A stretch of 20,718 bases of DNA from a plasmid: the sequence record CP127617.1, one strand, 5' to 3'. The notes beneath the pieces were generated by a model that saw nothing but the letters and a program-made list of their open reading frames with translations, did no database searches and was not told the DNA's origin. Shown here one piece after another: positions 6,126-17,135 of this stretch. A program made the position numbers and the translations under genes. Within the stretch, counting starts at the first letter, position 1, and every line of letters starts with the position of its first letter.

Positions 6126-6908
6126 TGTTTCTACAACTTCTGTACTTATTTTATCTAAACCATTTATATCCATAATTCTGTCTATCTGCGCAAATAAACG
6201 ATGAATCAGCCTAAAATTCCCTTTTGTAATTTTAATAATCGTCGTTATTGCCTCATAATCAGTAAAGTCTTCGAGTTTTAAATCAAATCCTAAGTCTTGC
6301 CACTTATATTCTAATATATGATGCGTCTCATCTTTACTTAGATTATCAAATTCATGCGCAAAACCTATACGCGAATATAATTGAGGATAACGAGATAGTT
6401 TTTTCTCTATACCCGGCATACCAATAAATATCATTGCTAAATTATGTTCATCATAAATAGCTCTTAATTGCTCTAAATGTTGCACTTTAAGGCGATCAAT
6501 CTCATCTACTATAATTAAATCAATATATTTAAACATATCACTATAATGTTTACTATGTTCATGTCCATACTTATTTACAACATGTAATTTTTGACCCAAA
6601 TCAATGATTGCAGTAATACTATATAAATCATTCCTTAATTTAGTTTGTTTTTCTGCTGGTGCATTATAAAATATTTTATCCACCGATAGTATGTCATCGG
6701 TCGTTTTACTAGCTAAATCTTCCCAACCTCTATGGTTAACTTGTTTTTCAATAGTATCCCAATTTGTGTAATACCTAGACGATAAAGTTTTTCCGACACC
6801 AGGTTGACCATAACATATACCAATATACTGATATTTAATACAAGCATCACAAAATTCAGCAAAGCGTTTATACTCTTTCGTTTCAATGAAATTTTGATTT
6901 TTAGTCAT
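6093..6908 (-). CDS. Tn552 p271 ATP-binding transposition protein (IstB/TnsC-like AAA+)
   Basis: 271 aa with Walker A GQPGVGKT and Walker B IIVDEIDRL. It overlaps the p480 stop by 8 bp. Confidence 0.85.
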   Translation of the reverse strand: MTKNQNFIETKEYKRFAEFCDACIKYQYIGICYGQPGVGKTLSSRYYTNWDTIEKQVNHRGWEDLASKTTDDILSVDKIFYNAPAEKQTKLRNDLYSITAIIDLGQKLHVVNKYGHEHSKHYSDMFKYIDLIIVDEIDRLKVQHLEQLRAIYDEHNLAMIFIGMPGIEKKLSRYPQLYSRIGFAHEFDNLSKDETHHILEYKWQDLGFDLKLEDFTDYEAITTIIKITKGNFRLIHRLFAQIDRIMDINGLDKISTEVVETARDSLVIGIR

Positions 6909-8344
6909 TACGATATCTCTTTAATTTTTTGACGTTTTTAGTCGTTTCTTGAGGTGAATAACCACAATTTTTTTCTTCCTTAATTAATTCCGTGGTACTT
7001 GGACTAGCAATATTTTGTTTTAAGTGTTTTCTTCTCTGACTACGAGCGTGCTGTATGTCTTTTATATCTATGGAGTAATCAGCTATTTCTGGACATATAG
7101 CAGTACAAAGAAATTCATCTCTATAAAACACACGTATTTCAGCCATATCATTTGGGTTATAACGAATCAGTACATATTCACCTACATAAGCTTCTAGATT
7201 AGTATTACTGTATCGAAAACCTTGAAAATGAATGCCATCTGAATGAACTTTTCTAGATTTAGGTATTTCCAACAATAATAAATCAAGTTGTTCTAAGCTA
7301 CTTGGCATATTAGGGAAAAAGTGATTACTATTCCAATGACTGATAGGCGTGGTATGAATAGTACTATGTTCTTTTTGATTATAATCTTCAATTAAAAAGT
7401 AACGTAATTTTTCTTCAAAATTGTGAAAATTTATTAGATTACTAGGAGTATCATTATTGTTTATATATCCAGGCAGTTGTTCTAAGAAAGTTTGATTAAC
7501 TGTCTGAAAGAATCGTTCTATTTTTCCACGACCACGAGGAACACCAACTTTCGAAAACATCAAGTTAATTTTCAAATCAATAGCGACTTGTTCCATATGA
7601 TGTGAAGTAAAGTCACTTCCATGATCTGTGTAGAATTTTTCGGGTATACCACACACTGGCCAATTGGTATCATTTTTATTCCATATTGCTTGGTGTAGTG
7701 TTAATGCTGTGTTTTGAGCATTGGGGGGCATCAAAACTTAAGAAATAGCCTGCAATTGCACGACTATAGTCATCCATAATAATAGTTAGCCATGGTCTAT
7801 TGATATTACCTTTTTGGTCTAATATAAAGATATCTAGCAAAGTATGGTCTGCTTGCCATATTTCATTGGGTCTCGAGGATTCTCTAATTTGTATTAAATC
7901 GTACTTATTTTGATAGTATTTTTCACCCTGATGAGAGAAATCAATAACAGACTTAGGCATCGCTTTAATAACACTATAAATTTGTTTATAACTTGGTATA
8001 TCAAAATTATTTTCTTTACAGTAATTAGTGATTTTCCTATGAATTGTGGCTATACTATTTCTTTTATTCATAAGCGCAAGGCGTTCAATTTCATCAATTA
8101 TCTTTGGTTCTATTTTACGTGTTCCTTTATCAGCTCTTGTCGCATAGATTAGTCCTTTAAGTCCTTGTTCTTTATATGACTTATTCCACCTATAAAGGGT
8201 GCTTAACGCAATCCCTTTACTTTTAGAAATACTTGATAAAGATTGTTCGCCTAGGATAAAAGGTTTTATAATATTGTACTTTTGAGTAGCTTTTTTACGT
8301 TTGGCTTCAGAAAAATTAGTTAGATACTTCTCCTTGTTTTTCAT
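6901..8344 (-). CDS. Tn552 transposase p480 (DDE, Mu/IS21-like), interrupted by a 1-bp frameshift in a C6/G6 homopolymer at 7723-7728
   Basis: The N-terminal part runs from MKNKEKYLTNF.. to ..SFDAP. The C-terminal part (NAQNTALTLHQAIW..DHGSDFTS..) continues in the +1 frame. Combined length is about 480 aa. SFDAP|NAQN is restored by removing one C. Confidence 0.8.
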
Positions 8345-8909
8345 CTTCCTTGTCCTCCAATTTATTGAGGTAACGATAAATTGTTGTACGTGAAACATGC
8401 CACTGTTCTGCAATTGTCTTAATTGGCGTGCCATTATCATAAAGGGTCTTAAGTAAGTTTAAATCTTTTTGATTTAATTTTTCTGGTCTGCCTCCATATC
8501 GGCCTCTAGCACGTGCTGCAATTCGGCCAGCTGAAGAACGCTCTAAAATTAAATTACGTTCAAATTCTGCAAATGCTGCGAATAAATGAAATAATAATTG
8601 TCCAGTTGAACTTGATTTATCCATTGTTATATTTTCTTCTAAACTATGGAAACTTACACCTCGTTCGTTAAGCTCATTAACTAATGTGATTAAATCCTCC
8701 ATATTACGTCCCAATCTATCTAATCTCCAAACAACAATCGTATCTCCTGACCTCGCAAATTCAATTGCTTTATCTAAACCAGGTCTTTTACTTTTTGAAC
8801 CACTCATATGGTCATTAAATATCTTTTCACAACCATATGTATTTAATCGATCCTCCTGTAAATTTAAATTTTGTAATCCAGTTGAAACTCTTGCATAACC
8901 TATTTTCAA
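8316..8909 (-). CDS. binL: Serine recombinase (resolvase/invertase) BinL/Bin3 of Tn552
   Basis: MKIGYARVSTGLQNLNLQ.. has the catalytic Ser in the YARVS motif. C-terminal HTH TIAEQWHVSRTTIYRYL. The 3' end overlaps the p480 start. Confidence 0.85.
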   Translation of the reverse strand: MKIGYARVSTGLQNLNLQEDRLNTYGCEKIFNDHMSGSKSKRPGLDKAIEFARSGDTIVVWRLDRLGRNMEDLITLVNELNERGVSFHSLEENITMDKSSSTGQLLFHLFAAFAEFERNLILERSSAGRIAARARGRYGGRPEKLNQKDLNLLKTLYDNGTPIKTIAEQWHVSRTTIYRYLNKLEDKEDEKQGEVSN

Positions 8910-11331: not shown

Positions 11332-12252
<921 letters not shown>

Positions 12253-12597: not shown

Positions 12598-12620
12598 TAT
12601 TAATTATGAGATGGAAATCA

Positions 12621-13229
12621 ATGATTGTTGGCTATGCGAGAGTATCATCGAACGATCAAAATTTAGAAAGACAACTTGAAAATTTAAAGACGTTTTGTGC
12701 TGAAAAAATATTTACAGAAAAACAGTCTGGGAAATCTATTGAAAATAGACCAGTACTTCAAGAAGCACTTAACTTTTTGAGGATGGGAGATCGGTTTGTA
12801 GTAGAATCCATTGATTGTTTAGGTCGTAATTATGATGAAGTGATTCATACCGTTAATTATTTAAAAGACAAAGAAGTACAATTAATGATTACTAGCTTAC
12901 CTATGATGAATGAAGTGGTTGGCAATCCATTACTGGATAAGTTTATGAAAGATTTAATTATTCAAATATTAGCAATGGTTTCAGAACAAGAGAGAAATGA
13001 AAGTAAACGTCGACAAGCGCAAGGAATTCAAGTTGCGAAGGAAAAAGGCGTATATAAAGGGCGCCCCTTACTTTATTCACCAAATGCTAAAGATCCACAG
13101 AAACGTATTATTTATCATCGCGTTGTAGAAATGTTAGAAGAAGGCCAATCAATTAGTAAAATTGCGAAAGAAGTAAATATAACAAGGCAGACGATTTACA
13201 GAATTAAAAACGATAATGATTTGATTTAA
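12621..13229 (+). CDS. sin: Sin serine recombinase (plasmid multimer resolvase)
   Basis: [23 protein letters not shown].. with a C-terminal HTH. Closely matches staphylococcal plasmid Sin. The upstream in-frame extension MRWKS is probably not translated. Confidence 0.85.
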
Positions 13230-13321: not shown

Positions 13322-13352
13322 AAGAGAGCGTAAATATGCTCTCTCTTTTTCT
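13322..13352 (+). terminator. Intrinsic terminator AGAGAGC-gtaaatat-GCTCTCT followed by a T5 run
   Basis: Direct reading, 3' of sin. Confidence 0.7.
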
Positions 13353-13642
13353 CATTAACGAATGTTTATAACGCAATCATGATGAGAGTATTAATACAGT
13401 TAATTATTTGAAATACTTTAGTTTATATAATGTTGAATTATAGGTAGTGAAATTGTATTTATTATACATTGTCATATCGTTGTTTAATGATAGTTAATTT
13501 AAGGATAATAGAATTAATATTATATATAGATGAACAAAACAAGCAACAGAGCAGAAAAAACACTTTTAGATTATTTTTACTCATTCTCTATTTTATTTAT
13601 TTTTGCTATAATAAATAAAGAATATTAAATGGAGGTGTTTTT

Positions 13643-13936
13643 ATGAAAAAGAAATTTGTTTCTAGTTGTATTGCTAGTACAATCTTATTCGGCACTTTAT
13701 TAGGTGTAACTTATAAAGCTGAAGCTGCAACAGTACATGTAGCTGGTGGTGTTTGGAGCCATGGTATTGGAAAACATTACGTATGGTCTTATTATAGTCA
13801 CAATAAAAGAAATCATGGTTCAACAGCAGTAGGGAAATATTCATCTTTTAGTGGTGTTGCTCGACCTGGTGTTCAATCTAAGGCATCTGCTCCAAAGGCT
13901 TGGGGTGGAAACAAAACATTTTATAGTCTTCACTAA
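13643..13936 (+). CDS. Lactococcin 972-family bacteriocin precursor (Sec signal peptide plus ~70-aa mature peptide)
   Basis: Signal peptide MKKKFVSSCIASTILFGTLLGVTYKAEA. The mature part GGVWSHGIGKHYVWSYYSHNKRNHGSTAVG..NKTFYSLH follows the Lcn972 pattern (W-HG-G, aromatic-rich, HxH). -10 TATAAT at 13604-13609, SD GGAGGTG. Confidence 0.8.
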   Translation: MKKKFVSSCIASTILFGTLLGVTYKAEAATVHVAGGVWSHGIGKHYVWSYYSHNKRNHGSTAVGKYSSFSGVARPGVQSKASAPKAWGGNKTFYSLH

Positions 13937-13954
13937 TTACATATATTAATTAAG

Positions 13955-13997
13955 GAGAATAGACAGAATTAAGTAAACTTAATTCTGTCTATTCTCT
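13955..13997 (+). promoter_or_regulatory. 19-bp perfect stem-loop (GAGAATAGACAGAATTAAG-taaac-CTTAATTCTGTCTATTCTC) between the bacteriocin gene and the downstream genes. Partial terminator/attenuator.
   Basis: Direct reading. There is no strong T-run after it, so read-through is likely. Confidence 0.5.
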
Positions 13998-14010
13998 TGA
14001 AAGAGGCAAT

Positions 14011-15945
14011 ATGAAAAAATTCAAATTATTTTTAGATTTTAGTACTTTATTATTAATTTCAGGGCTATTATTTTTATTTTTCTTCAAAGAAAATGAAGAA
14101 ATTATACCTGAAAGTTCCAATATTTTAACAATCTCTAATTGGGATAAATCTAACAGTAAATCAAAAGTGTTAGATGTCATTGAATCAGGCGCCAAAAATC
14201 AAAATATACAAATAATTAAATCCGTTAAAGATTTTGATAATAAAAAAGAATTTTTTGTTTTCAACTCAAAACGAAATAATTCTGACTTTATACGTAATAA
14301 AACATCACTTTTAACTCCATCAGATTTATTAAACAGAGAGATAAAAGGAAAGTATTATATTATTGGTGAACATTTCAATGTAGAAGAGCTTACGAGTGAA
14401 TTAAAAAAAGCTGGTTTAACATCTGAAGTTGAATACATAAATAGAAACATATTATTTTTTGAATTAGTCATAGATAATGATTTATTAGTGCCTTTCATAT
14501 TCTTAGGCGTATTATATCTTTTGTACTTCTTATATGACAGAGGATATAATTTGAAATTTTATGCTATTCAAAAGCTACATGGCTTTTCAACTACACGCAT
14601 TATTTTTCATAATATTCATATAAAAATCATTTATTGGCTAGTACTTACCGCTATTTTCTTTATTGCTAATATATTAATCATTCATATAGCCAATTTAGAA
14701 TTGGATTTCTTAATGTTTATTCGTAGATTTATCGTGTTGCTTTTTGTTTTTGCTTGTATTACTACATTGCTGTGGCTGATTTCGTATAGTCTTCTTTTGA
14801 AGTTAAGTATTCCATTAATCTTAAAAGGGAAAAAAGGATATAAGTTTTCAATATTTATGGGTACCTTCACCAAATGTATCATGGTGCTAATACTATCTTT
14901 TTTACTGGCACAAAATTTAAATGCTTATACGAAGTTAAAGAATATATATGACTCTGAAAAAATCTGGCAAAAGTTAGATAATTACTATACATTAGAGATT
15001 TCTCCTAATATTAGAAATTCAGAAGAAAAACAAATTTTAGAAACTAATATATACAATTTAATTAAGAAAAGCGAACAACTTGGTGGATTGCTTTTAAAGA
15101 ATAATAATATAGCCAATCCCGATAAAAACAATTACATTCCTGAAAATGGCAATGTCTTTTTTATCAATAACAATTTTCTGAATTTCTATAAAAATATAAA
15201 TCATGATTTTAAAATGATTGACAATCATTCGGATAAAATAAACGTGTTTATTCCTCCAAGGTTACAATATCAAAAATCTGAAATTCAAAAAAATCACCAA
15301 GGATGGATTGACTTTCAAAAGCAACAAAACAAAAAAGTAGATGTGCAAGTACTGTCAAAAAACGTATCTGTTTTTTCTTTTGATCGCACAACTAATTTGA
15401 AATTTGGGTATCTAGATTCTCCAATAGTAATGTTGTTGACACTTGACGATTTAACAGGAGATTTTTATTTAGCTGCTGTTTCTCAAGGTGGATATCTATT
15501 TAAAGATTTAGATACACTTAAACAGTTGCTTAAAGATAATCACCTAGAAGAAGAAATTAGCGGTATAACTAATTACAAGGATTCTGTGTTAAATGAATTA
15601 AATGAAACGAAAACAAAAATGATAATAACAATAGTTACTATTATTATTAACGTTTTCATTCTTTTGATAGCTACTGTATTTGAAACAATTCAATATTTTA
15701 GCTGGAATAAAAAGCAACTATTATTAAGAAAAATTCATGGTTATTCATTATTCAGCAGTAATGTACGTTATTTAACAATTTCTATCTTACTTTCTATTAT
15801 GTTAGCTTACACTACGCATATTTTATTTGGTTCAAAGATATTACTATTCATAATAATGTCTATTGCTATTATTCAACATTTACTTCAAATTGCTTATATT
15901 AAATATCTTGAAAAATACTTTAAAGATTTAATGAGGGAGATTTAA
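14011..15945 (+). CDS. Bacteriocin-associated integral membrane protein (DUF1430 / FtsX-like permease), putative Lcn972 immunity-export component
   Basis: 644 aa. N-terminal TM, a large extracytoplasmic region, then two C-terminal clusters of hydrophobic helices. Matches the gene 2 position of Lcn972 operons. Confidence 0.75.
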   Translation: MKKFKLFLDFSTLLLISGLLFLFFFKENEEIIPESSNILTISNWDKSNSKSKVLDVIESGAKNQNIQIIKSVKDFDNKKEFFVFNSKRNNSDFIRNKTSLLTPSDLLNREIKGKYYIIGEHFNVEELTSELKKAGLTSEVEYINRNILFFELVIDNDLLVPFIFLGVLYLLYFLYDRGYNLKFYAIQKLHGFSTTRIIFHNIHIKIIYWLVLTAIFFIANILIIHIANLELDFLMFIRRFIVLLFVFACITTLLWLISYSLLLKLSIPLILKGKKGYKFSIFMGTFTKCIMVLILSFLLAQNLNAYTKLKNIYDSEKIWQKLDNYYTLEISPNIRNSEEKQILETNIYNLIKKSEQLGGLLLKNNNIANPDKNNYIPENGNVFFINNNFLNFYKNINHDFKMIDNHSDKINVFIPPRLQYQKSEIQKNHQGWIDFQKQQNKKVDVQVLSKNVSVFSFDRTTNLKFGYLDSPIVMLLTLDDLTGDFYLAAVSQGGYLFKDLDTLKQLLKDNHLEEEISGITNYKDSVLNELNETKTKMIITIVTIIINVFILLIATVFETIQYFSWNKKQLLLRKIHGYSLFSSNVRYLTISILLSIMLAYTTHILFGSKILLFIIMSIAIIQHLLQIAYIKYLEKYFKDLMREI

Positions 15946-15948
15946 ACA

Positions 15949-16260
15949 ATGAAAAGAACTTTAATTATTGTAACAATTGTACTATTAATCATCATACTTA
16001 GTCTGTTATTGGTTAGAAATGAGCATTTAGATCGTTTTAACCCACTGTTAAAAGAAAAAGTATCTTATGCCAAAGTTCCAAAAGATACCCAGGACTATAG
16101 AAATATAACTGTATACTCTAAAAATGGAGAAAAAAAGAGTTATAAATTGGATTTTTTAGGTTATGATCCTACAAAAGAATATGTGAAAGTAAATCATAAA
16201 GGGAAATATGTGCGTTCGATAGAATACATTACAAAAGATATTCCTAGCTTTTTAAAATGA
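15949..16260 (+). CDS. Small membrane-anchored protein (YxeA/DUF1093-like), 103 aa
   Basis: N-terminal TM LIIVTIVLLIIILSLLLV, then a beta-rich soluble part. Its start is 4 nt after the upstream stop, suggesting translational coupling. Confidence 0.5.
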   Translation: MKRTLIIVTIVLLIIILSLLLVRNEHLDRFNPLLKEKVSYAKVPKDTQDYRNITVYSKNGEKKSYKLDFLGYDPTKEYVKVNHKGKYVRSIEYITKDIPSFLK

Positions 16261-16271
16261 GGTGACCGATA

Positions 16272-16898
16272 GTGATAAAACTTGAAAATGTTTTTGTAAA
16301 AAAAGGTAATAAAAACATTTTAGACGGATGTAACTTTAATTTTGAAAAAGGAAAATCATATGCTTTAGTTGGAGAAAGTGGCGCTGGAAAATCTACTTTA
16401 CTTAACATAATCGCTGGGTTCGAAGATGTATCACAAGGAAGCATATATATTGAAGATAAGTTACTAAAAAAGAAAGTCGATTTTTATAGATATACGTTAG
16501 GGTATTTGTTTCAAAATTTTGCTTTACTTGAAAATCAAACAATCAGTCAAAATTTAGATTTAGCCCTAAAGTTCAAAAAGAATAAAAAAGATAATATGAA
16601 CTTAAAGAAAGAAGTATTAAAAAAGGTCGGCCTAGATTTAGATATCAAGAGAATTGTTAGTTCTCTAAGCGGTGGTGAACAACAAAGAGTAGCATTGGCA
16701 AGATTAATATTAAAAGATCCGAAAATCATTTTAGCTGATGAACCTACTGGGTCACTAGATACGAAAAATGGAAAAATAGTTATTGATTTATTATTGAAGC
16801 TACTTGATGAAAATAAAACTATGATTGTCGTAACGCATGATTTAGAGCTTGCGAAACGATTTGATGTCATAGTCAATATTTCTGAGCTTAGAAGTTAA
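16272..16898 (+). CDS. ABC transporter ATP-binding protein (bacteriocin immunity/export), GTG start
   Basis: Walker A GESGAGKST, Q-loop, ABC signature LSGGEQQRV, Walker B ILADEPTGSLD, H-loop VTHD. Confidence 0.85.
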   Translation: MIKLENVFVKKGNKNILDGCNFNFEKGKSYALVGESGAGKSTLLNIIAGFEDVSQGSIYIEDKLLKKKVDFYRYTLGYLFQNFALLENQTISQNLDLALKFKKNKKDNMNLKKEVLKKVGLDLDIKRIVSSLSGGEQQRVALARLILKDPKIILADEPTGSLDTKNGKIVIDLLLKLLDENKTMIVVTHDLELAKRFDVIVNISELRS

Positions 16899-16978
16899 GA
16901 AATATTGATAGGTATAGCCATACATAGAGAAAAAACAATATGAAATATGATTAGTCATTACTTTTGAGTTTTTTAATT

Positions 16979-17007
16979 TAAGGACTGGATTTTCCAGTCC
17001 TTTTTTA
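16979..17007 (+). terminator. Intrinsic terminator AGGACTGG-attt-TCCAGTCCT with T6
   Basis: Direct reading, 3' of the ABC ATPase gene. Confidence 0.7.
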
Positions 17008-17135
17008 TGATGACAAAAAACAAGCCTCGCAGAGCACACGTTTTTAATGACTTATTTGGTTTTTAATAAGTCTAGTATGTTAAAACTTTTCTGTGTTTAG
17101 GTGTTATAATCATATGCAGTGGAAGTTGATTTATT

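Follow-up and report, generated by a model that had tools for sequence, protein, structure and literature searches.

A predicted lactococcin 972-family bacteriocin operon with a YxeA-family gene on a common staphylococcal penicillinase plasmid

Lactococcin 972 (Lcn972), the prototype of its bacteriocin family, binds lipid II and blocks septum synthesis, a mode of action established for this member only. It is encoded on the Lactococcus lactis plasmid pBL1 by the cluster lcn972-orf2-orf3, which specifies a Sec-dependent peptide, a DUF1430/TIGR01654 membrane protein and a TIGR03608-type ATPase. A cluster with these three genes in the same order, likewise plasmid-borne, is found at 13643-16898 of a 20,718-nucleotide stretch of plasmid DNA (sequence record CP127617.1; hereafter the window), where a fourth gene, for a YxeA-family protein of 103 amino acids (aa), lies between the permease and ATPase genes. 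Identity to the pBL1 proteins is 49% for the ATPase, about 22% for the permease and 28% for the peptide. Unlike the window, pBL1 has no YxeA gene, and its ATPase gene starts 2 nt after the permease stop codon. The cluster of Streptococcus plurextorum has three genes like that of pBL1, in line with an earlier note on this DNA that had described classical loci as three-gene. In L. lactis, orf2-orf3 are treated as immunity genes; the pBL1 cluster confers immunity and, through post-segregational killing, keeps plasmids stable, an effect measured for pBL1 derivatives (PMC4055356).

We consider it likely that the operon in the window pairs a bacteriocin with self-protection of its producer and travels as cargo on a common pMW2/pN315-type penicillinase plasmid, comprising a Sec-secreted cationic peptide, a BceAB-like immunity transporter and a YxeA accessory protein. 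The operon is already known by sequence, annotation and family assignment, and its antibacterial function is predicted. Three modest additions are made here. In the staphylococcal branch the immunity module recurrently includes a YxeA gene, in two gene orders and with or without a peptide gene. The DUF1430 permease has a predicted tandem FtsX/MacB fold, which provides a mechanistic link to the YxeA-carrying BceAB-type modules. Finally, five clusters each have a hairpin at the same place, after the peptide gene.

Four further family members have measured activities and spectra, namely Lcn351 of Streptococcus suis, Sil of Streptococcus iniae, Lmo2776 of Listeria and mediterrocin of Mediterraneibacter gnavus, whereas the staphylococcal plasmid peptide is predicted only. 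All four are unmodified and carry N-terminal signal peptides, as the window peptide is predicted to do, and therefore do not depend on a dedicated exporter. Lcn351 was indeed detected among the secreted proteins of S. suis (PMC9067509), and mediterrocin has a predicted Sec-dependent signal peptide (PMC12345188). Where the clusters of these relatives have been described, they include DUF1430 and ATP-binding cassette (ABC) genes (PMC9067509, PMC12345188).

The gene order of the window, Lcn972-DUF1430-YxeA-ATPase, recurs in the Macrococcus plasmid p19Msa1099-3, where all four genes are RefSeq-named, and in the chromosomes of Staphylococcus equorum (with the permease split into two open reading frames, ORFs) and Staphylococcus hyicus. 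The four-gene layout is thus a recurrent arrangement of the staphylococcal branch that is kept across deep divergence. The earlier note had called the extra gene unusual; it is so by comparison with the classical layout, but within this branch it is the recurrent form and is annotated by RefSeq on hundreds of plasmids.

A second set of relatives is provided by the BceAB-type modules, such as YxdJK-YxdLM-YxeA of Bacillus subtilis and YsaDCB/TCS-G of L. lactis, in which, as in the window, one operon encodes an FtsX-fold permease, an ABC ATPase and a TIGR01655 protein. These modules protect against cell-wall-active peptides, YsaDCB against Lcn972 itself; YxeA-family genes accompany the transporter genes in both yxdLM-yxeA and ysaDCB, and YsaD modulates signalling (PMC7438565). 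The likeness has limits. BceB has 10 helices with one large domain between helices 7 and 8, whereas in the DUF1430 permease there are about 8 helices and two large outside domains; YsaD is described as secreted, whereas the 103-aa protein of the window looks anchored; and no histidine kinase or response regulator was seen among the window ORFs of at least 90 aa as far as these were scanned. The transporter of the operon may work like BceAB, yet it is not a member of the BceAB type.

Operon layout and the bacteriocin precursor

The operon consists of four same-strand ORFs arranged head to tail. Its genes and signals are as follows (RBS, ribosome-binding site; z, z-score).

13323-13344, + strand: terminator-like bidirectional hairpin; 9-10 bp stem, T runs on both strands, -14.3 kcal/mol, z = -4.6
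13604-13612, + strand: candidate extended -10 element TGcTATAAT, read by eye, with a weak -35 element ttctct at 13584-13589
13643-13936, + strand: bacteriocin precursor gene; 97 aa, RBS GGAGGTG 6 nt ahead of the ATG
13643-13726, + strand: predicted Sec signal peptide, residues 1-28
13727-13933, + strand: predicted mature peptide, 69 aa, assuming a cut behind AEA at residue 28
13953-13998, + strand: stem-loop between the bacteriocin and permease genes; perfect 21-bp stem without a U tract
14011-15945, + strand: DUF1430 permease gene; 644 aa, RBS AGAGG
15949-16260, + strand: YxeA-family gene; 103 aa, RBS GAGGGAG
16272-16898, + strand: ABC ATPase gene; 208 aa, GTG start, RBS GAGGTG overlapping the yxeA stop codon
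16980-17008, + strand: intrinsic terminator; hairpin 16980-17002 with a 10-bp stem, 5 G-C pairs and a 3-nt loop, then TTTTTTAT; z = -4.2

Taken together, these features bear out the four-gene Lcn972 operon proposed in the earlier note: all ORFs lie where it had placed them, and TIGR01653, TIGR01654, TIGR01655 and TIGR03608 each match above their cut-offs. The genes are closely packed. The permease stop codon TAA occupies 15943-15945 and is followed, after 3 nt (aca), by the yxeA ATG at 15949, that is 4 nt past the last base of the stop, as had been counted before; a further 11 nt separate the YxeA gene from the ATPase gene. These 3-nt and 11-nt gaps make translational coupling plausible.

The 97-aa product of the first gene matches TIGR01653 with 105.4 bits (cut-off 32.1) over model positions 1-96 of 97, and the Pfam family PF09683 (Lactococcin_972), against which a search of 13643-13936 had been proposed, with 52.2 bits (cut-off 22). 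Its leader bears the signs of the Sec type, with a KKK n-region, a hydrophobic segment at residues 5-23 and an AEA/A site at residue 28, and the orthologues of S. hyicus, Macrococcus and S. equorum keep the AxA/AT motif. The predicted mature peptide of 69 aa agrees with the Sec-dependent product of about 70 aa expected earlier; it begins with ATVHVAGG, ends in FYSLH and has a mass of 7418 Da and an isoelectric point (pI) of 10.2, with no Cys and no acidic residues. A phmmer comparison with PDB 2LGN, the nuclear magnetic resonance entry of Lcn972, gave a marginal match over residues 36-94 (expectation value E = 0.011), and is a comparison of sequence only. Export by way of a double-glycine leader, as in the scheme drawn in the Staphylococcus shinii paper (PMC11161930), was considered and rejected, as the precursor has a Sec-type AxA site.

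Not every copy of the operon is intact. Sequences of Staphylococcus aureus include many truncated Lcn972-family peptides of 53-84 aa, some perhaps shortened by contig ends, and the permease gene is in two or more pieces through frameshifts in several plasmids (H68-H70, H77, H83 and H87) and in the metagenome locus L014. From these truncated peptides and split permeases, the operon appears to decay in part of the population.

Upstream, the hairpin at 13323-13344 separates a recombinase gene from the operon. A scan for consensus promoters called none in the upstream region, the -35 element having fewer than 4 of 6 matches, and the extended -10 at 13604-13612 is a candidate promoter element on the strength of its motif. 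A strong further signal is the stem-loop between the first two genes, whose folding energy of -29.5 kcal/mol (z = -8.3) was equalled by none of 200 shuffled sequences. Hairpins occupy the same position in Macrococcus (L004:1253-1299), S. equorum (L005:5283-5339), pBL1 (L006:3516-3570) and S. plurextorum (L003:618-698), so that the feature is present in all five clusters examined, the window included, although the sequences are unrelated. It is probably a leaky terminator or attenuator, or else stabilises the bacteriocin transcript at its 3' end. At the far end, the hairpin 16980-17002 provides the clean terminator that the earlier note had placed after the ATPase gene. About 70 nt upstream of it, a 17-nt imperfect inverted repeat (16873-16908, 88% complementary) spans the ATPase stop codon.

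The transporter and the YxeA-family protein

The 644-aa permease matches TIGR01654 with 233.6 bits (cut-off 189.35) over residues 1-637, and the DUF1430 family PF07242, likewise anticipated for 14011-15945, with 72.1 bits at its C-terminus (residues 545-643). The Pfam FtsX model (PF02687) gave no match at E <= 0.1, so the likeness to BceB and YbbP described below is one of fold and not of sequence-family membership. An AlphaFold2 model of moderate confidence was obtained from a six-sequence alignment (predicted local distance difference test, pLDDT, 67.9; predicted template modelling score, pTM, 0.55). Hydropathy and model together give 8 membrane helices in the succession helix 1, a 120-aa domain, helices 2-4, helix 5, a 230-aa domain and helices 6-8. 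Loops rich in Lys and Arg are cytoplasmic and both large domains lie outside, which fits the positive-inside rule.

Foldseek returned six hits at E <= 0.001 for this model, all of them FtsX/MacB-fold (type VII ABC) permeases. They include Escherichia coli YbbP (2.3e-6), B. subtilis BceB (1.3e-5 to 3.1e-5) and the Streptococcus pneumoniae transporter 5XU1 (Spr0695; 5.1e-4); MacB matched more weakly (3.7e-3), and LolCE and FtsX were also among the top hits. The FtsX/MacB fold predicted for the permease is solid at the level of family ranking only. The N-terminal and C-terminal halves align weakly with each other in hhalign (E = 6e-4, probability 29%) over a stretch comprising the last strand of the outside domain, the next helix and a K..L.K.HG.S motif, an alignment that fits a tandem duplication. 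The ATPase matches TIGR03608 (L_ocin_972_ABC) with 265 bits (cut-off 254.85) and PF00005 with 120.7 bits; the next-best model, FtsE, scores 170 bits and falls under its own cut-off, and a Pfam scan found no peptidase domain in the protein.

The 103-aa protein matches TIGR01655 (yxeA_fam) with 62.6 bits (cut-off 29.65) over residues 2-100. Here an expectation of the earlier note failed: the Pfam model of DUF1093 (PF06486), to be searched for in 15949-16260, reported no match up to E = 10, and only one of eight orthologues reaches E = 0.078. Membership of the YxeA family therefore rests on TIGR01655 together with PDB 3NPP, the B. subtilis protein BSU39620 ('DUF1093 family protein'), which a profile of the eight YxeA orthologues matches with E = 1.5e-4. 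An AlphaFold2 model (pLDDT 81.5) consists of a helix at residues 2-30 and five strands that form a small beta-barrel, and its best Foldseek match is again 3NPP (probability 1.00, target-normalised template modelling (TM) score 0.61, root-mean-square deviation 2.6 A). The hydrophobic segment covers residues 4-22 and shows no AxA site by eye. The protein is thus predicted to carry an N-terminal membrane anchor and a small five-stranded beta-barrel on the outer face, like B. subtilis YxeA; the pI of its ectodomain is 9.5. Identity to the Macrococcus, S. equorum and S. hyicus relatives is 50-58% for YxeA and 48% for the bacteriocin, and that of the permease to the first two is 33-36%. By these figures the conservation of YxeA equals or exceeds that of the bacteriocin; in the Macrococcus and S. 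equorum clusters it also exceeds that of the permease.

The contexts of YxeA genes were surveyed by a metagenome scan anchored on YxeA itself, which shows where these genes lie and not what fraction of DUF1430 clusters has one. It yielded 44 loci, 12 of them S. aureus-like and 32 divergent (35-56% identity). Ten of the 32 divergent genes lie in DUF1430/ABC modules, six in the order permease-YxeA-ATPase and four as permease-ATPase-YxeA (NCBIfam-confirmed). This second order, which may include the Lcn972 gene ahead of the permease, occurs in the metagenome contigs L026, L039, L040 and L051, so that the linkage between YxeA and transporter survives a change of order. The peptide gene can be missing altogether. 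In S. hyicus, the site between rplI and dnaB holds a Y1 (IS200-type) transposase and the full four-gene cluster in L010 and L011, and permease-YxeA-ATPase only in L007, with a 312-nt gap free of any Lcn972-like ORF; permease, YxeA and ATPase genes without an Lcn972 gene also occur in L008, L035, L037, L039 and L040.

The S. hyicus rplI-dnaB site thus presents a polymorphism between producer and immune-only states within one species. Another site of interest lies behind rplS, where the module directly follows this gene in L039 and a solitary yxeA follows trmD-rplS in L031 and L055, apparently at the same site; these arrangements suggest gain or loss of a transporter pair next to a resident yxeA. 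In S. shinii, '300 nucleotides' were reported between the immunity gene and the ABC gene (PMC11161930), a gap of the right size for an overlooked copy of YxeA, although we infer this from length. Protein searches gave 8 permease, 17 peptide and 19 YxeA matches, almost all staphylococcal, the sequences being AT-rich and of low complexity. A profile from the DUF1430 alignment found two loci in genome contigs, one of them L002. This contig (NZ_BMKQ01000007.1, 592 bp, 'Marmoricola endophyticus') shares 99% protein identity with the S. aureus DUF1430 protein and is almost certainly contamination of this actinobacterial assembly by S. aureus plasmid DNA. A tblastn search of plasmids with the pBL1 permease returned pBL1 itself and three Macrococcus/Macrococcoides plasmids only, and no further informative genera.

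Proposed function and its alternatives

On the basis of gene identity and linkage, protein folds, the Sec-type leader and the signals for transcription observed here, we infer an antibacterial activity and its target, an immunity mechanism, a role for YxeA and plasmid stabilisation along the following lines. The precursor would be exported by Sec and cut by signal peptidase I after AEA (residue 28), releasing an unmodified, Cys-free and strongly cationic peptide of 69 aa that, by analogy with its family, would act from outside on the envelope of related Gram-positive bacteria. The products of genes 2 and 4 would assemble into an ABC transporter of the permease and two ATPase copies, in which the permease would form two tandem units of one helix, an extracellular domain and three helices. 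This transporter would be dispensable for peptide export. Its ATP-driven movement of the extracellular domains would instead release the envelope target or drive the peptide off the membrane surface, as has been proposed for BceAB. YxeA would belong to the immunity module; it would either tune the transporter as an accessory subunit or bind the peptide at the surface. The hairpin between genes 1 and 2 would probably set a high ratio of bacteriocin to immunity transcript. Segregants without the plasmid would lose their immunity, and since plasmid loss removes immunity, the cluster should favour plasmid retention, as for the lactococcal prototype (PMC4055356).

The earlier note had left YxeA as a dedicated factor of either immunity or maturation. 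The existence of permease-YxeA-ATPase modules without a peptide gene ties the protein to self-protection and argues against maturation; of the two roles immunity is accordingly favoured, and a maturation factor was rejected because the gene accompanies the transporter where there is no peptide to mature.

Several observations weigh against this picture. The antibacterial activity of the plasmid peptide is itself predicted from sequence, and to our knowledge neither N315 nor the strain of NZ_CP009362.1, both carriers of the operon, is known as a bacteriocin producer. Given 28% identity to Lcn972 and the marginal match to 2LGN, lipid II cannot be assumed as the target. The permease model, with its pLDDT of 67.9 from six aligned sequences, reaches TM-scores of only about 0.3 to the transporters it resembles. 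In the metagenome scan, 22 of the 32 divergent YxeA genes are solitary and chromosomal, adjoining housekeeping genes with no transporter beside them, and the YxeA family is therefore not dedicated to the bacteriocin module. An S. aureus isolate carrying a putative Lcn972-family cluster showed no antimicrobial production (PMC12328743), and other members of the family differ widely in spectrum (PMC9067509). YsaD, moreover, is dispensable for resistance in L. lactis (PMC7438565), and by analogy YxeA may likewise be non-essential here.

Four other explanations deserve consideration, and all appear less probable than a bacteriocin with linked self-protection. The most serious concerns YxeA alone, which could be a second immunity protein that stands on its own and traps the bacteriocin at the surface, like LanI beside LanFEG, and not a subunit or regulator of the transporter. 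This is a minority possibility that draws on the predicted membrane anchor and small extracellular beta-barrel, on related genes that stand alone in chromosomes without a transporter, on the conservation of YxeA beyond that of the permease and on the well-established two-tier immunity of lantibiotics, in which an anchored binding protein acts alongside an ABC transporter (mentioned in PMC4055356). Simple electrostatic capture is, however, disfavoured by the basic character of both ectodomain (pI 9.5) and peptide (pI 10.2); close relatives of YxeA adjoin a permease or ATPase gene in two gene orders, and YxeA-family genes accompany BceAB-type transporters that have no cognate bacteriocin (PMC7438565). 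Somewhat less probable is that the cluster is silent or decaying cargo in S. aureus, or that it persists chiefly for immunity or plasmid addiction, with little killing of other species. The non-producing carrier strain (PMC12328743), the truncated peptides and frameshifted permeases, the frequency of immune-only modules and the plasmid stabilisation by the lactococcal cluster (PMC4055356) all speak in its favour. Yet in the window all four ORFs are intact and have good RBSs, identity is at least 99% in 247 plasmids, and the retention of all four genes by orthologues at 48-58% identity points to purifying selection on the whole set, peptide included.

It seems improbable that the host, or a narrow non-staphylococcal member of the microbiota, is the main target of the secreted peptide. 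There are precedents in Sil of S. iniae, which affects host innate responses, and in Lmo2776 of Listeria, which targets Prevotella copri (PMC9067509); spectra are diverse across the family, and no anti-staphylococcal activity is reported for the carrier strains. On the other side, a linked immunity transporter implies sensitivity of the producer itself, and so favours targets close to it. The least credible reading makes genes 2 and 4, with gene 3, a dedicated exporter or processing machine for the bacteriocin instead of an immunity device. It is in this way that the S. shinii paper draws the pathway (PMC11161930), and TIGR03608 is described as a 'putative bacteriocin export ABC transporter'; the transporter genes are also tightly linked to, and probably co-transcribed with, the bacteriocin gene. 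However, the leader of the precursor is of the classical Sec type, with an AxA site and without a double-glycine motif, and the ATPase lacks a peptidase domain. As the structures of MacB, LolCDE and BceAB show, FtsX/MacB-fold transporters have no transmembrane substrate channel. At least six loci, moreover, hold the transporter module without any bacteriocin gene.

Beyond the self-protection role preferred here, one may tentatively conjecture that YxeA proteins, small beta-barrels that are either anchored in the membrane or secreted, are a general extracellular accessory of FtsX-fold transporters protecting Gram-positive cells from envelope-targeting peptides, of both the BceAB and the DUF1430 type, that the staphylococcal YxeA is required for or specifies self-immunity, and that the operon is a bacteriocin-based addiction system through which S. 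aureus populations are helped to retain blaZ plasmids; this wider proposal is a good deal less secure. The linkage of YxeA to two kinds of FtsX-fold peptide-resistance transporters offers a tractable route to the function of a widespread family. If the peptide is active, it could affect staphylococcal competition on skin and in the nose, and could keep resistance plasmids stable in the absence of antibiotic pressure, as happens with the lactococcal prototype. The operon is carried by some of the commonest penicillinase and cadmium-resistance plasmids of S. aureus, among them the plasmid found in reference strain N315.

Plasmid context and earlier reports

The whole window corresponds to a nearly complete pMW2-type S. 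aureus plasmid, with 99.4% identity over its full length to AF128883.1 ('S. aureus 21kb plasmid') and 99.7% identity to CP141489.1. The 3.7-kb operon region matches 326 Staphylococcus plasmids, with at least 99% identity in 247, and among the best 30 S. aureus plasmids listed it is 100% identical over its full length in each. Carriers include pMW2, pN315 (gene SAP019), pTCH60, AF128883 and the plasmid of NZ_CP009362.1 (accession reported for ATCC 25923); across the 3.7 kb their copies are 95-100% identical to the window and show no difference of substance. RefSeq names the four products lactococcin 972 family bacteriocin, bacteriocin-associated integral membrane family protein, YxeA family protein and ABC transporter ATP-binding protein.

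The earlier note had taken the family to be without a characterised staphylococcal member, and the literature agrees. The pMW2 gene was described in 2019 as a 'yet uncharacterized' Lcn972-family bacteriocin (PMC6491766), and a 2024 review lists the S. aureus Lcn972-type clusters as predicted only (PMC10941976). SAP019 of N315 has been aligned with family members and reported to be 35% identical to Lcn351 (PMC9067509). The supernatant of S. equorum KS1039 gave a halo on S. aureus RN4220, a correlative result without genetic proof (PMC5810056), and the literature consulted held no other claim of staphylococcal activity and no discussion of a YxeA gene within an Lcn972 cluster, the two papers that mention both included. 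The 'lactococcin 972' of a paper on RNase III was considered as a report on this plasmid gene and rejected: it refers to SAS028, a small chromosomal ORF of N315 'similar to lactococcin 972' with high expression, antisense RNA and RNase III sensitivity (PMC3386247). SAS028 is unrelated to the location of the plasmid operon and might be a remnant of another family member.

The neighbourhood of the operon contains two further genes of note.

11365-12252: blaZ (NF033139, 623 bits)
12606-13229: serine recombinase gene, between blaZ and the operon

The operon is therefore near blaZ, as had been noted before, with the recombinase gene between them. In the window blaZ is surrounded by blaR1/blaI, cadD and MobV relaxase remnants. 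The MobV-family relaxase is spread over two ORFs on the + strand, 17136-17441 and 17466-17765, which cover model positions 1-100 and 113-187 and score 66.9 and 89.4 bits, each under the cut-off of 100; this mobilisation gene appears frameshifted or interrupted. A DDE transposase beside the bla region is similarly represented by two overlapping ORFs on the - strand (6901-7734 and 7676-8440) with weak IS481/IS3-type matches, and is probably frameshifted.

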